This document shows positions 4,100 to 47,786 of a DNA stretch of 64,000 bases, piece by piece. The stretch lies in the NCBI GenBank assembly GCA_016191465.1, contig JACPOP010000020.1:11888-75887 (forward strand), in the 5' to 3' direction. Made by a program: the position numbers and the translations under genes. This DNA is from Chloroflexota bacterium (GTDB lineage Bacteria > Chloroflexota > UBA6077 > CF-72). How positions within the stretch are numbered: position 1 is the first letter of the stretch; each line of letters opens with the position of its first letter. Below the pieces are notes generated by a model, which did not search any database, was not told the DNA's origin, and saw only the letters and a list, made by a program, of their open reading frames with translations.

Positions 4100-4631
4100 A
4101 TGCCCCGCAGCCTGGTGGCGCTCAGCGCGGCCGCCATCAGCGCCGTGTACGCGGCTGGCTACGTGCAGACGCGCACCGCGGATGCGCAATTGGGCGCGAG
4201 TGGCCCCCTGCTGTCCACGACCAGCCGCGCCGCCGCGGCTCCGGCAGCCACCCCGATCCCCACTCCGCTCGTGCTGCAACGCGGCGACGACGGCCGGCCG
4301 GCCAATCCGTTCGACGGACGGGGGTCCGGGCAGGAGCGGCGCGGGCGCGCCGCCCCCCCCCCCCCCCCCCCCCAATGTGGGCCCGGCCCCCCGGCGCCCG
4401 GCGCACCCCCGCCAAAGCCACCTGTGGGTGGCCGTGACCGTGCAGGGCGGACGGATCGCCTCGGTCGAGATCACACGGTCCACGCTCCAGTACCCGGTGC
4501 GCGTGATCGAGGGTCTCCCGGGCCAGGTGACTGCGCGCCAGGGCCCGCAGGTGGATGCCATCAGCGGCGCCACCTACAGCGTGCAGGCGTTCCGTACCGC
4601 CGTCCAGCAGGCGCTGTCGCAGGCGGCCTGA
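4100..4631 (+). pseudogene. FMN_bind-domain membrane/secreted protein, apparently frameshifted at or near a C21 homopolymer
   Basis: The N-terminal anchor MPRSLVALSAAAISAVYAAGYVQTRTAD plus an Ala/Pro/Thr linker is in the frame of ATG 4100. The FMN_bind C-terminus (WVAVTVQGGRIASVEI...QVDAISGATYSVQAFRTAVQQAL) is in the frame ending at 4631. The frames change across the poly-C run at 4353-4373. Confidence 0.55.
4353..4373. repeat. Homopolymeric tract of 21 consecutive C residues
   Basis: Counted directly from the sequence (8+10+3 C). Confidence 0.95.
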
Positions 4632-8548: not shown

Positions 8549-10306
8549 ATGGCCGGGACAACCGTGGGGACGCCTCAGCACAGTGACGTGCGCGACGGTA
8601 TGCAGGTGGACTGGGACGTGCCCATTGAGACCGCCGATGGGATCGTCTTGCGCGCCGACGTGTTCCGCCCGCCGATCGCGGGGCGCTTCCCGGTGCTGTT
8701 GTCGTACGGACCTTATGCCAAGGGACTGAGCTTCCAGGAAGGCTACCCCGCACAATGGCAAAAAATGGTGAGCGACTACCCGGACGTGGCGGCCGGGTCC
8801 ACCAATCGGTACCAGAACTGGGAGGTCGTGGACCCCGAGAAATGGGTGCCGGACGGCTACGTCTGTGTCCGCGTCGATTCGCGTGGGGCCGGTCGGTCGC
8901 CCGGTTTTTTGGACCTGTTCTCGCCCCGGGAGACGCGTGACCTGTACGAATGCATCGAATGGGCTGCCGCCCAGCCGTGGAGTAGCGGCAAGGTTGGGCT
9001 GATCGGCATCTCCTACTACGGCATAAACCAGTGGCTTGTGGCGGCCCTCCAGCCGCCGCACCTGGCGGCCATGATTCCCTGGGAAAGCAGTGCCGACTTT
9101 TACCGGGAGAGTACGTACCACGGTGGCATCCTGAGCGACTTCATGGCTCGCTGGTACCCCGTGCAGGTCAAGACCGTGCAGCATGGGGTGGGAGAGCGTG
9201 GCGCCAGGAGCCCGATCACCGGCGAGCCGGTGGCAGGGCCCGAGACGCTCACGGACGCCGTCCTGGAGGCGAACCGGGCCAACCTGCCCGCGGACATCCG
9301 CTCCCACCGCTTGGACGACGCCTGGCACCAGGAGCGCTCGGCCGTCTGGCCGAAGGTCCAGGTACCGTTCCTCTCAGCGGCGAACTGGGGCGGCCAGGGG
9401 CTGCACCCGCGCGGCAACTTCGACGCGTTTACGGATGCTGCCGCGGAGCAGAAGTGGCTGGAAGTCCACGGCGGGGCGCACTGGGCACTGTTCTACACCG
9501 ACTACGGCATTGCCTTGCAGAAGCGGTTCCTGAACCACTTCCTGAAAGGGGTAGACAACGGCTGGGACCAGGAGCCACGGGTCTTGCTGAACATCCGCCA
9601 CCCGGGCGAGCGCTTCGTGCCGCGTCCGGAGCACGAATGGCCATTGGCACGCACCCGCTGGACGACGTACTACCTTGACCCGGCGGCGCAGGGCTTCAGC
9701 GCACGGCCACTGCCCAACCTGGAGTCCGTCACCTACGAGGCCCTCGGCGACGGCATCACCCTGAGCACCCCACCCCTCGAAGCCCCCACCGAGATCACGG
9801 GGCCAATCGCGGCCCGGCTGTTCATCTCGTCGTCCACCACGGATGCGGATCTGTTCCTGGTTGTACGGGTCTTCGACCCGGACGGTGCCGAGGTCGTCTT
9901 CCAGGGCGCGCTGGACCCGAACACGCCGATCGCTCAGGGGTGGCTCCGCGCCTCGCATCGGCGGCTCGACCCGGAAAAGACCCTTCCGTACAAGCCCTAT
10001 CATCCCCATGGCCGCCCTGAGCCTCTGACGCCGGGTGAGGTCTACCAGTTAGACGTGGAGGTGTGGCCGACCTGCATCGTCGTGCCAGCGGGCTACCGCC
10101 TGGCGCTGACGGTCCGTGGCCGCGACTACGAGTACGCCGGTGAGCTTGACGAGTTCGCCCGCACGTTCGTGTACGCATCGAGGGGCGTGGGTCCGTTCAC
10201 GCACGCGAGCGCCGAAGATCGGCCGGCCGAGGTGTTCGGCGGGCGCGTGACCCTCCACGCGGGCGGGGGCAGGGATTCGTACCTCCTGCTCCCGGTCATC
10301 CCGTGA
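8549..10306 (+). CDS. CocE/NonD-family (S15 X-Pro dipeptidyl-peptidase-like) alpha/beta hydrolase
   Basis: RADVFRP...FPVLLSYGPY, VRVDSRGAGRSPG, nucleophile elbow GISYYG, C-terminal jelly-roll domain. The ATG at 8549 is preceded by GAGGGGA. Confidence 0.85.
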   Translation: MAGTTVGTPQHSDVRDGMQVDWDVPIETADGIVLRADVFRPPIAGRFPVLLSYGPYAKGLSFQEGYPAQWQKMVSDYPDVAAGSTNRYQNWEVVDPEKWVPDGYVCVRVDSRGAGRSPGFLDLFSPRETRDLYECIEWAAAQPWSSGKVGLIGISYYGINQWLVAALQPPHLAAMIPWESSADFYRESTYHGGILSDFMARWYPVQVKTVQHGVGERGARSPITGEPVAGPETLTDAVLEANRANLPADIRSHRLDDAWHQERSAVWPKVQVPFLSAANWGGQGLHPRGNFDAFTDAAAEQKWLEVHGGAHWALFYTDYGIALQKRFLNHFLKGVDNGWDQEPRVLLNIRHPGERFVPRPEHEWPLARTRWTTYYLDPAAQGFSARPLPNLESVTYEALGDGITLSTPPLEAPTEITGPIAARLFISSSTTDADLFLVVRVFDPDGAEVVFQGALDPNTPIAQGWLRASHRRLDPEKTLPYKPYHPHGRPEPLTPGEVYQLDVEVWPTCIVVPAGYRLALTVRGRDYEYAGELDEFARTFVYASRGVGPFTHASAEDRPAEVFGGRVTLHAGGGRDSYLLLPVIP

Positions 10307-32450: not shown

Positions 32451-32550
32451 GTCATCCTGAGCGGAGTAAAGGATCCATGCGAGCGCCAAGTTCCAAGTGG
32501 AGACGGATCGTTCGGTTCACTCAGGATGCGATCCGCCGGCGGCGGATCGC
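32451..32550 (+). repeat. Intergenic hairpin-module element, copy A (module, ccaagttccaag, inverted module, then a perfect 10-bp/3-nt-loop hairpin at 32528-32550)
   Basis: gtcatcctgagcggagtaaaggatcc (32451-32476) pairs with ggatcgttcggttcactcaggatgc (32505-32529); gcgatccgcc-ggc-ggcggatcgc follows. It lies between the RCC1 stop and the NHL start. Confidence 0.7.
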
Positions 32551-32563
32551 CCCCACGGAGCCC

Positions 32564-34135
32564 CTAGCGCGTGGGCGTCGGCGGCGTGAACGGCCGCAGC
32601 GCGGGAACCGTGGGCGTGGGAGTGGCCACGCTGGGCGCCGGCGGGGCAGGGCTACTCGTAGGCGTTGGAGTGGAGTTAATTGCGATGGGCGGCAACACGG
32701 GCCGGTTGGGTGCAACCCCGAGTGTCGGCTGAGGCTCGGTGGGGAAGATCGGGGTCATGACCAACCGACCACCCTGGACCACGGTGTGGGCGCCGCCGGC
32801 CGCGACAGCCGTGACCTCGCGGAGCAGCTCGATCCGCAACGGCTTGGGCCGATCCAGCCGGTCGCCGAACCCGAGTTGTCCGCTGCTCCCCTGGCCCCAG
32901 GCGTAGACCACGCCGGGACACAGGCTCCCGAGCGAACCGCACACGTCGATCGGTGCCTGGTTCAAGACGGCCACGCTGTGGAACGCCCCGGCGGCGATGC
33001 CCATAGGCGATGCTCCGCCGAGGCCGCCTCCGTTGGGGACAGCCGGCACCATGACCGGCGCCGCCCGCATGTCGAAGGTGCCATCGCCCACCTGGCCACG
33101 GCTGTTATCACCCCAGCCCCACACCGCGTCGTTGCTGATCGCCAAGCTGTGGGCCTGGCCGGCGGCCATGGCCGCGACGTTGATCAGCGGCACCAGTCCT
33201 GGCGCCACGCGGCAGGCGCAGCCATCACTCACCGCGGCCGAGCTGCCCAACTGGCCAGTTCGATTGGAGCCCCAGGCGTAGAGGCGCCCATCGCGACCGA
33301 GCGCCAGACTGTGCGCGCCGCCGGCCGCCACTGACGCGATGCCGCCCAGGCGGTCGTCGCGCGTGGTGTTCGCTCCCACCGGGACGGGCATGGGCAGGAT
33401 CGGGCCGTTCAGGTAGGCCTCCACGCCGGCGCCAAGCTGGCCGTCTTCGTTGTTGCCCCAGGCCCAGACCGATCCATCGGCCTTGACCGCCAGGCTGTGG
33501 CGTTCGCCGGCGGCGATGGCCACCACGCCGCGCAGGGGCGGCGATCCCACCGGCGATGGCACGAGGAGCTCGCGGGCCTCATCCCCAGCCAGACCCGAGG
33601 TGTCAAACTCGCACCAGATGAGGAAGCAGGTTGGCCCGTCGTCATACACCGCCCCGGGGTAGCCGTTGCCCAATTGTCCCGATTGCCCATCGCCCCAGGC
33701 GAACACCTGGCCGTCCTGGGTGAGCGCCAGGCTGTGGCGCGCGCCGGCCGCGATGGCCGTGACGTTCGATAGTCCCTCCACGATGACAGGGGTCGAGCTA
33801 TCAACCTGGGTGCCGTCGCCCAGTTGGCCAAACTCGTTTCGGCCCCACGCGCGGACCGTGCCGTCGGTTAGCAGCGCCAGGGTGTGGCTCCCGCCAGCGG
33901 CTATAGCGCGCACATCCGTCAGACCACCTTCGACACCCGGTGCGTCCACCGACGGTCCGGCAGCGCCCAACTGGCCGCTGCCGTTCTCGCCCCAGGCGAG
34001 TGTCGTCCCGGGTCCGGCCGCCAGGGTGGGGCTGACCAGCAAGGTCGCAATGACCAGCAGCGTACATGTCGGCAGCAGCCATGGGGACCGGCGTTTCGCA
34101 TGACGTCGCGAGGCTCCGACCCCGTCCTCATCCAG
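32564..34135 (-). CDS. Secreted RCC1-repeat beta-propeller protein with a Pro/Thr-rich C-terminal tail
   Basis: At least seven RCC1-type repeats (AWG.N..GQLG.G...). Signal-peptide-like RRHAKRRSPWLLPTCTLLVIATLLVSPTLAAG. No in-frame ATG/GTG/TTG precedes the signal peptide, so the 5' end is set provisionally at the CTG at 34135. Confidence 0.75.
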   Translation of the reverse strand: MDEDGVGASRRHAKRRSPWLLPTCTLLVIATLLVSPTLAAGPGTTLAWGENGSGQLGAAGPSVDAPGVEGGLTDVRAIAAGGSHTLALLTDGTVRAWGRNEFGQLGDGTQVDSSTPVIVEGLSNVTAIAAGARHSLALTQDGQVFAWGDGQSGQLGNGYPGAVYDDGPTCFLIWCEFDTSGLAGDEARELLVPSPVGSPPLRGVVAIAAGERHSLAVKADGSVWAWGNNEDGQLGAGVEAYLNGPILPMPVPVGANTTRDDRLGGIASVAAGGAHSLALGRDGRLYAWGSNRTGQLGSSAAVSDGCACRVAPGLVPLINVAAMAAGQAHSLAISNDAVWGWGDNSRGQVGDGTFDMRAAPVMVPAVPNGGGLGGASPMGIAAGAFHSVAVLNQAPIDVCGSLGSLCPGVVYAWGQGSSGQLGFGDRLDRPKPLRIELLREVTAVAAGGAHTVVQGGRLVMTPIFPTEPQPTLGVAPNRPVLPPIAINSTPTPTSSPAPPAPSVATPTPTVPALRPFTPPTPTR

Positions 34136-34171
34136 GCCCGTGCTGCGAAAATCCGCTAGCGGCTGGCCCCC

Positions 34172-34332
34172 GTCATCCTGAGCGGAGCGAAGGATCCGTG
34201 GGTCAGGGTTCCAAGTTCCACGTTTGAAGATCCACGTTGTTGGTGGCCCGCCGCGTCTTGTCTCCTGATCACTGACAACTGACGACCGACGACTCGGTGA
34301 GTCGGATCCTTCGGCCGCAGCCGCAGGATGAC
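34172..34332 (+). repeat. Intergenic hairpin-module element, copy B (161 nt)
   Basis: gtcatcctgagcggagcgaaggatcc (34172-34197) pairs with ggatccttcggccgcagccgcaggatgac (34304-34332). The interior contains ttccaagttcca and a 7-nt periodic tract, tgatcac tgacaac tgacgac cgacgac (34266-34293). Confidence 0.7.
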
Positions 34333-34587
34333 CGGTGACAAGCACGGGAGTGCGTCCCCCCCGTACCGCTCGCCGAAAGAAGCTCACGTTCCAAAGCCTC
34401 GGAAATCGCGTCACACGTGCCCCCATCCCTACCTATCAACAGGCCGGGGTCACATTCTGTCAAGAAGTACCTTCTGCCTACCGACAGGCGTGCTGCCGCG
34501 GGAGGGCGACCAGCAGGTGTGGGTTGTGAGGAAGCAGATGGCAGGGACCCCCGGCCACCTGTGAACTTGGAACTCGGCACTTCGCCT

Positions 34588-47574: not shown

Positions 47575-47786
47575 GAGTTGCAAGTTCCAAGTTCCAAGTT
47601 GCAAGTTTGGAGTTGTCGGGTGTCCTCCGGAGGCCGCGGCCGAAGGATCCGTGCTCGTGCGTGGGAGACGGATCCTTCGCTGCGCTCAAGGATGACACGG
47701 ACACTTCGTCTCCTTGGAACTTGGAACTTGGAACTTGGAACTTGGAACTTGGAACTTGGAACTCGGAGCTCGGAGCTCGGAGCTCG
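47575..47786. repeat. Composite intergenic element, copy C: left heptamer array, hairpin core, right heptamer array
   Basis: 47575-47616: six degenerate RAGTTNN heptamers. 47620-47696: gtgtcctccggaggccgcggccgaaggatcc, 19 nt, ggatccttcgctgcgctcaaggatgac. 47713-47761: 7 exact CTTGGAA units. 47762-47782: 3 exact CTCGGAG units (plus ctcg). Confidence 0.9.

Follow-up and report, generated by a model that had tools for sequence, protein, structure and literature searches.

Hairpin repeats on both sides of an RCC1 gene in a Chloroflexota genome are probably gene-less copies of the Ssn-related motif

Introduction

Why would a structured repeat stand on both sides of a single bacterial gene? The question is raised by a 64,000-nucleotide stretch of DNA from a Chloroflexota metagenome-assembled genome (MAG; contig JACPOP010000020.1, positions 11,888 to 75,887), the window of this study, in which two hairpin-forming repeats, copies A and B, bracket a gene for an RCC1-repeat protein. 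The initial annotation of the locus offered three answers: a cassette moved or duplicated through the repeats, elements inserting at gene boundaries like repetitive extragenic palindromes (REPs) or miniature inverted-repeat transposable elements (MITEs), or RNA structures serving as 5′ untranslated region (UTR) and terminator. Here we report that these repeats and a third one in the window are probably (at a probability of about 0.8) inverted doublets, lacking a gene, of the 25-nt Ssn-related motif (SRM), a type of hairpin recognized by small single-strand-specific nucleases.

In Neisseria the corresponding repeat, NTS, reads CGTCATTCCCGCGMAVGCGGGAATCYRG (Chenal et al., Nat Commun 2025, PMC11893778). 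SRMs lie on either side of genes for SsnA. This 94-aa nuclease consists of a single GIY-YIG domain; it binds the hairpin only as single-stranded DNA (ssDNA), cuts a few nucleotides upstream of it and binds neither RNA nor double-stranded DNA (dsDNA); ssDNA binding and cleavage were demonstrated for the Neisseria and Wolbachia enzymes (PMC11893778). Mutagenesis of the NTS revealed that cutting is controlled by the three bases preceding the palindrome on its 5′ side, and that binding depends most strongly on the C immediately following it on the 3′ side (PMC11893778). The NTS-ssnA-NTS architecture resembles an insertion sequence, and NTS-gene-NTS clusters surround surface-protein genes and lower transformation (PMC11893778).

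Results

The window carries three inverted doublets of one module

The sequences quoted in the initial annotation were located where it had placed them. The left arms of copy A (GTCATCCTGAGCGGAGTAAAGGATCC, 32451-32476) and copy B (GTCATCCTGAGCGGAGCGAAGGATCC, 34172-34197) are identical at 24 of 26 positions and both lie on the plus strand, and a search of the window allowing three mismatches returned exactly these two (0.00 expected, from 100 shuffles). Each has an inverted partner, at 32505-32528 for A (75% complementary over 24 nt) and at 34304-34332 for B, where the centre is 3 nt longer and the arms pair in the fold. As proposed, each copy can fold as a hairpin, and long hairpins form on both strands of both elements.

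The pair is real, but the window holds further copies. A covariance model trained on other genomes alone (R1), run unfiltered over the window, recovered six modules (A+, A-, B+, B-, C+ and C-) independently of the window sequence, and these make up three inverted doublets. The third was detected at 47618-47653 (+) and 47667-47700 (-), in an element copy at 47576-47786 that is better preserved than the A and B doublets. Two of three elements would fall into adjacent spacers with a chance of about 10% (for an estimated spacer count of about 55), so the bracketing of RCC1 is not significant alone.

The string ccaagttcca, which the initial annotation had noticed 3′ of each left arm, is present at 32486 and 34211, but it belongs to a heptad microsatellite, (CCAAGTT)n. 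This heptad has 13 near-matches in the window, where 0.12 were expected; every one lies at one of the three elements, and 204 other loci have none. It is thus a lineage-specific companion of the repeat, and the three copies share ancestry within the lineage.

Each module is a small hairpin, conserved across phyla

We scanned species-representative genomes with the pattern GTCATCCTGAGCGNAGNNAAGGATC, which was found in at least 120 stretches; their record titles name at least a dozen phyla, and the module is nearly unchanged among them. The groups named among the matches listed are Acidobacteriota, Chloroflexota, Bacteroidota, Planctomycetota, Verrucomicrobiota, Gemmatimonadota, Nitrospirota, Omnitrophota, Patescibacteria, Bacillota, Alpha- and Gammaproteobacteria, Bdellovibrionales, Synergistota and Lentisphaerota. 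A pattern such as TGTCRYYYYGARCGNAGYGARRRRYC would admit the GCGNAGC-capped variant. Most arms among the matches listed form short convergent doublets with loops of 11-143 nt, and the arm pairs comprise 64 convergent, 18 divergent and 23 same-orientation (tandem) cases. Stop-free frames of at least 150 aa contain 41% of the arms, compared with 87% of random 25-mers. The description of the modules as a dispersed, mostly extragenic repeat family in inverted doublets is therefore essentially right. In the text of the literature, the letters of the module turned up only as coincidences with primers.

From 117 non-redundant arms, not picked by the seed pattern, we derived the consensus T-GTC-ATCCT-GA-GCGNAGC-GA-AGGAT-C-T, with at least 90% conservation at G5, T6 and C7 of the 5′ flank and at C29 on the 3′ side. 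Each module is its own small hairpin, made of a 5-bp stem (ATCCT/AGGAT), a tandem G·A step and a GCGNAGC cap. In the proposed fold, the 5-bp stem is followed by two G·A/A·G oppositions and by two more pairs closing a GNA loop, and all seven of the Watson-Crick pairs show covariation. Double-sided changes numbered 94, compared with 21.9±3.7 in shuffles, none of 500 of which reached 94; control registers slid by 1-3 columns gave only 11-21. The third pair, for example, occurs as C-G, T-A and G-C, and the sixth as G-C and A-T.

Module positions 11-17 are exactly GCGNAGC, with an N that varies freely and two closing pairs that covary. A DNA mini-hairpin of the same letters is documented as extraordinarily stable (PMC13037366) and is familiar from physical chemistry; we infer that here it caps the site recognized by a nuclease.

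Within a doublet, the free loop base is common to both arms more often than chance predicts (40/64 cases, 0.32 expected), and the state of a covarying stem position is not (32/64, 0.56 expected). As the stem position is uncoupled between arms, selection acts on the single 25-nt module; the long hairpin is a consequence of the arms being inverted.

SsnA-like genes accompany the module in other genomes

At one of the listed loci, L064, two arms enclose an open reading frame (ORF) for a 96-aa GIY-YIG protein. An iterative protein search over all six-frame ORFs of the 120 listed loci recovered four GIY-YIG ORFs, all four within 50 nt of arms, and none in the window; the associated proteins match the Pfam GIY-YIG family at 5e-15. 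Approached from the protein side, in the best 80 metagenomic loci encoding relatives (56-74% identity), an arm lies within 200 nt of the ~95-aa GIY-YIG gene in 51/80 homologues, and arms stand on both sides in 30/80, typically with the forward arm upstream and the reverse arm downstream.

A tblastn search with the L064 protein hit the N. gonorrhoeae chromosome at 46% identity, and the matching gene is the 94-aa SsnA, flanked by canonical NTS repeats. In hhalign, the comparison with gonococcal SsnA reached 99.5% probability (E=4e-23, 46% identity). The genes associated with the module in other genomes are homologous to ssnA. Searches of the nuclease sequence against NCBIfam and PDB found no specific family, the sole matches being UPF0213 structures (3e-8). 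The gonococcal sequences include 2.17-Mb records labelled as plasmids (NZ_CP119140.1, L203) that are evidently chromosomes; they carry ssnA and NTS repeats.

Some loci show further arrangements. In Pedobacter sp. AK013 (L092, 4575-5618), complete doublets are repeated in tandem every 140 nt directly beside an ssn homologue, which indicates that the elements can amplify locally. The Planktothrix agardhii plasmid NZ_LR882964.1 (L204, 280-1200) carries an ssn homologue that shares 66% identity with the L064 protein. Its neighbours are an MmeI-type restriction-modification gene on one side and DISARM drmA on the other, and around it stand doublets as well as tandem copies of the arm's first half (tgtcattctgagt...). 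In several doublets, mostly from Chloroflexota (L005, L093, L099, L107 and L064), the palindrome extends 10-15 nt past the arms, e.g. ccccaccct...agggtgggg, and the mobile or copied unit may therefore exceed the two modules.

The window copies as probable Ssn-related motifs

The module is a hairpin-forming semi-palindrome within the 20-50 nt range of SRMs, bears the 5′ GTC orientation flank and the 3′ C, and in other genomes flanks genes for ~94-aa single-domain GIY-YIG SsnA-like proteins; its family is that of the SRMs. The conserved GTC, the short palindrome and the 3′ C are shared with the NTS, in which mutagenesis identified the GTC and C positions as critical for cutting and binding (PMC11893778), and the SRM-ssn-SRM architecture around a ~94-aa single-domain GIY-YIG gene is shared as well. 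Like the NTS, the module has many gene-less intergenic copies, sometimes on both sides of a gene ('NTS-gene-NTS'). It differs from the NTS, which has a continuous 8-bp stem, in its 5-bp stem, tandem G·A and GCGNAGC cap, and further in its Chloroflexi MAG host, its mostly convergent doublets and the heptad microsatellite on the window copies.

Among the window modules, the oriented flanks (GTC and 3′ C) are present in A+, B+, B- and C-, and GTC is lost in A-. Module B+ agrees with the cross-phylum consensus at each conserved position. A+ reads GTC-ATCCT-GA-GCGGAGT-AA-AGGAT-C, with an intact outer stem and a weakened inner cap (G11-T17; G18 replaced by A). B- keeps GTC, the ATCCT/AGGAT stem and the 3′ C, and its centre is instead a 4-bp stem, CGGC-TGCG-GCCG (DNA fold -10.9 kcal/mol, z=-3.0). 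In A-, CGC replaces GTC, the outer stem has one mismatch and the inner stem is broken, with two non-standard pairs marked; in C+ the outer stem is degraded.

Several points weigh against assigning the window copies to the SRMs. Three of the six modules (A-, C+ and partly A+) are without some of the defining positions. The published pattern HGTCWYN(0-2)YYVSBRHN(0-5)WNVSBRGN(0-2)RNCYNB matches 0/253 and 0/153 arms and none in the window; a canonical NTS used as a control did match, and the pattern was derived from 29 genomes and is not a functional criterion. The tandem G·A step violates that pattern, so the sub-lineage described here would escape a survey based on it. An ssn gene is absent from the 64-kb window in profile and tblastn searches. 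Searching the loops and the rest of the window for ssn remnants by tblastn gave only noise (E above 0.08), the long loop of doublet B (34197-34304) holds neither an ORF nor an ssn remnant, and the locus-tag prefix of the source MAG does not occur among the top 120 homologues. With no ssn gene in the window, its copies may be orphan relics. In nearest-neighbour DNA folding, single canonical modules are not above shuffles (z -0.7 to -0.9), so the structure rests on covariation and on the known G·A and GNA motifs; tandem G·A and GNA loops are probably not well captured by standard DNA parameters. Finally, cleavage is extrapolated from proteins that are 46% identical.

RNA and MITE interpretations

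We consider it improbable that the hairpins act primarily as RNA, be it as the 5′-UTR of RCC1 (copy B), as a 3′ stabilizer or terminator (copy A with the adjacent 10-bp stem) or as small RNAs (sRNAs). Both elements do lie where the RCC1 transcript probably extends, long hairpins are predicted for both strands (-50 and -75 to -79 kcal/mol, z -1.4 to -2.6), and REP-type hairpins stabilize upstream mRNA. The module nevertheless stands beside unrelated genes in both orientations across phyla, there is no U-tract or terminator call, and orthologous loci work without the elements. A scan for intrinsic terminators made no call at 32451-32552, where neither strand has a T-run; a terminator role for the 10-bp stem was rejected, as it has no T-tract. 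The observed covariation is internal to each 25-nt module, with the stem position uncoupled between arms, which points to selection on the small module and not on a long RNA-style hairpin. SsnA, moreover, does not bind RNA (PMC11893778).

All 4227 Rfam families were compared with the window: none was found at the gathering threshold, none on the elements at E up to 10, and nothing reached the gathering threshold on 16 related loci either. A 'COG2827' RNA motif, which might be expected near such genes, did not appear among the Rfam matches. In Hymenobacter glaciei (L044, 3498-3721), a variant doublet (GTCATGCTGAGCGAAGTCGAAGCATC) partly matches RF02901 on both strands (about 52 bits, E=4e-9), a point in favour of an RNA role. 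The consensus hairpin of this family, AaHKsRNA41 (Aggregatibacter sRNA 41), …GCUGAGCU.UGCCGAAGCAUC…, resembles the doublet; however, the Hymenobacter score of 52 is below the gathering threshold of 97, the window copies have no match, and the Rfam family is described as RNA. Hairpins related to ours can thus be transcribed and have been catalogued as RNAs.

The suggestion of REP- or MITE-like elements at gene boundaries holds for the kind of element (dispersed, mostly extragenic, in inverted doublets) and fails for MITEs or REPs in the strict sense. Both further copies and covariation were found, which upholds the repeat character. Classical MITEs are internally deleted copies of terminal-inverted-repeat transposons, mobilized in trans by a transposase of the DDE or Y1 type, and it is very unlikely that the window copies are such elements. 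The inverted-repeat architecture with interiors of variable length would suit them, as would the excess of short gene-less copies over gene-carrying ones (4/120 among the loci listed) and the location outside coding frames more often than expected by chance. However, no target-site duplication was found in 63 doublets (abutting direct repeats, k = 2-6; mean direct identity 2.8/12, compared with 3.2 for shuffled pairs), and the flanks tend instead to extend the palindrome. The sole gene between or beside arms encodes the ~95-aa GIY-YIG nuclease, with no transposase domain, and each 'terminal repeat' is itself a covarying hairpin, unlike the ends of DDE transposons. Correia-type MITEs share with the module the format of small, gene-less intergenic inverted repeats able to affect neighbouring genes; the module differs in having neither a target-site duplication nor a transposase parent.

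The likeness to REPs and their doublets (REPINs) goes further: ~25-nt imperfect palindromes, extragenic, in inverted doublets that form long hairpins, with ssDNA-hairpin recognition involving a conserved unpaired 5′ motif and a single-copy protein gene flanked by repeats. A given REP is specific to its species; the present module hardly changes from phylum to phylum. The protein differs as well: a REPIN system has a repeat-flanked RAYT, a Y1 (IS200/IS605-type) transposase, and here the gene encodes a GIY-YIG nuclease.

Copy A is an insertion between ancestrally adjacent genes

Two relatives have RCC1 orthologues (56-60% identity), and in both of them an orthologous NHL-repeat gene (57% and 60%) lies directly downstream. 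The RCC1-NHL spacing is 28 nt in one, and the genes overlap by 4 nt in the other. Model R1 detected no module in the contigs of these relatives, in one of which the scan took in 506 nt upstream of RCC1. In the window the two genes are 177 nt apart, and the spacer is occupied by hairpin A together with the neighbouring 10-bp palindrome, which may be part of the inserted element. Since the relatives keep RCC1 and NHL adjacent without a module, the elements are best seen as insertions and not as cassette borders, and this comparison of gene order identifies copy A as an insertion.

That the direct repeats are borders, or recombination sites, of a mobile or duplicated RCC1 cassette is suggested by two directly oriented left arms 1721 nt apart around a single gene, but the ancestral, module-free RCC1-then-NHL order of both relatives, a third element 13 kb away between unrelated genes (NUDIX-like and aminotransferase) and the failure to find a second RCC1 copy or a recombinase nearby leave this reading next to no credence.

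Features of the window

The coordinates of the elements and of the bracketed gene are collected in table 1. The G+C content of the window is about 70%.

Table 1. Repeat modules, associated tracts and the bracketed gene in the window.
Feature	Position	Strand	Evidence or remark
Module A+, canonical, inner cap weakened	32451-32475	+	R1 31.5 bits, E=2e-6; pattern search
Loop of doublet A	32476-32505		two CCAAGTT heptad units at 32486-32499
Module A- (inverted partner), degenerate	32506-32530	-	R1 23.7 bits, E=3e-4
Perfect 10-bp palindrome, GCGATCCGCC-GGC-GGCGGATCGC	32528-32550		abuts module A-
RCC1-repeat (beta-propeller) gene	32564-34135	-	bracketed by repeats, outside them; signal peptide predicted
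Module B+, canonical	34172-34196	+	R1 40.4 bits, E=7e-9
Long loop of doublet B	34197-34304		heptad remnant 34211-34224; (ACTGACG)x3.4 tract 34271-34294
Module B-, variant	34305-34332	-	R1 20.4 bits, E=0.0025
Lone two-unit CCAAGTT remnant	34564-34577	-	230 nt past doublet B; in an inverted repeat
Heptad array (AGTTCCA)x4.6	47576-47607	+	left flank of doublet C
Module C+, degenerate, centre like that of B-	47622-47649	+	R1 17.8 bits, E=0.013
Module C-, canonical except 1-nt insertion	47671-47696	-	R1 31.8 bits, E=1.6e-6
Heptad arrays (CTTGGAA)x7.9 and (GGAGCTC)x4.1	47713-47786	-	inverted relative to the left array

The perfect 10-bp stem and the second 7-nt periodic tract in copy B were both present as initially described, the stem ending 13 nt from the RCC1 stop codon (32564-32566). 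Element C as a whole is a palindrome of ~210 nt (DNA fold -70.8 kcal/mol, z=-10.2), with a NUDIX-like ORF on one side and a class-III aminotransferase gene on the other; heptad arrays, (CCAAGTT)n and (GAGCTCC)n, border its arms in inverted orientation.

The bracketed ORF matches Pfam RCC1/WD40_RLD (E=5e-120), and its protein is a 100% match to P0001 (492 aa), a hypothetical protein of a Chloroflexi MAG. Among the upstream starts, only the GTG at 34135 retains the signal peptide. The public annotation begins at a TTG 31 codons further downstream, a start that drops the hydrophobic N-terminal segment (34042-34135); homologues and the GTG at 34135 suggest the longer protein with a signal peptide. 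An even longer ORF, 32564-34426, runs through hairpin B, yielding the peptide ...ILRSAQDD..., and this extension is spurious. On the minus strand, the gene order is LepA, a pyridoxal-phosphate (PLP)/ACT enzyme, an S11 DD-carboxypeptidase, hairpin B, RCC1, the 10-bp stem, hairpin A and the NHL-repeat protein.

Elsewhere in the window, R1 gave a weak solo match at 1124-1156 (19.6 bits, E=0.004) among overlapping long ORFs, with a candidate decayed reverse arm (cccttcgcgcttcacgg) just upstream (region 1103-1156); the solo match may be a relic or due to chance. A match to CATCCTGAGCG at 9127 was rejected as a chance occurrence within coding-like sequence. A run of 21 C at 4353-4373 is followed by a short GCCCGGC repeat.

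Discussion

If the window repeats are SRM doublets, as we favour, each module would fold alone where DNA becomes single-stranded during replication, repair or uptake. In this fold, two G·A mismatches stacked on each other would separate the 5-bp stem (ATCCT/AGGAT) from the GCGNAGC cap, with GTC unpaired on the 5′ side and C on the 3′ side. The shape and sequence of the fold together would make up the recognition site of a ~95-residue single-domain GIY-YIG Ssn endonuclease. Full elements would have the form SRM-ssn-SRM, and the window copies would be gene-less, REPIN-like derivatives in intergenic spacers, one of which has split the ancestrally adjacent RCC1-NHL gene pair. A cognate Ssn would exist in the source genome and cut the window copies, and Ssn, or recombination at its nicks, would spread them. 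Any effect on RCC1, through the end or stability of its transcript or through reduced replacement by incoming ssDNA of the kind seen with NTS-gene-NTS in Neisseria, would be a by-product.

The kind of element has been known since 2025; new here are the sequence variant and its host range outside the published pattern, together with the lineage-specific microsatellite. A further-reaching proposal, which we offer tentatively and think rather unlikely, is that the module represents a distinct pan-bacterial Ssn/SRM lineage that multiplies as REPIN-like doublets through Ssn nicking. The sequence GTC-ATCCT-GA-GCGNAGC-GA-AGGAT-C, near-identical in at least 12 phyla and unseen by the published pattern, may speak for such a lineage. 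Microsatellites and half-arms, such as (CCAAGTT)n in the window and the tandem half-arms in Planktothrix, may then be scars of nick repair, and the flanking of RCC1 and NHL, whose propellers are secreted, may amount to an 'ssDNA fence' analogous to NTS-gene-NTS in Neisseria.

For the locus itself, the split of the ancestrally adjacent RCC1-NHL pair may have altered the co-expression of the two genes. For annotation, the module repeat lengthens ORFs falsely, as in the ILRSAQDD-type read-through into RCC1. Because the published pattern misses a widespread sub-lineage, existing counts of motif-flanked ssn genes and of the phyla that carry them are probably underestimates; roughly 29% of ssn homologues counted as unflanked in the published survey. 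For enzyme engineering, the module with its GCGNAGC cap is a natural substrate of compact size. What had been an unexplained structured repeat around a gene would thus turn into a set of recognition hairpins for recently discovered site-specific ssDNA nucleases.

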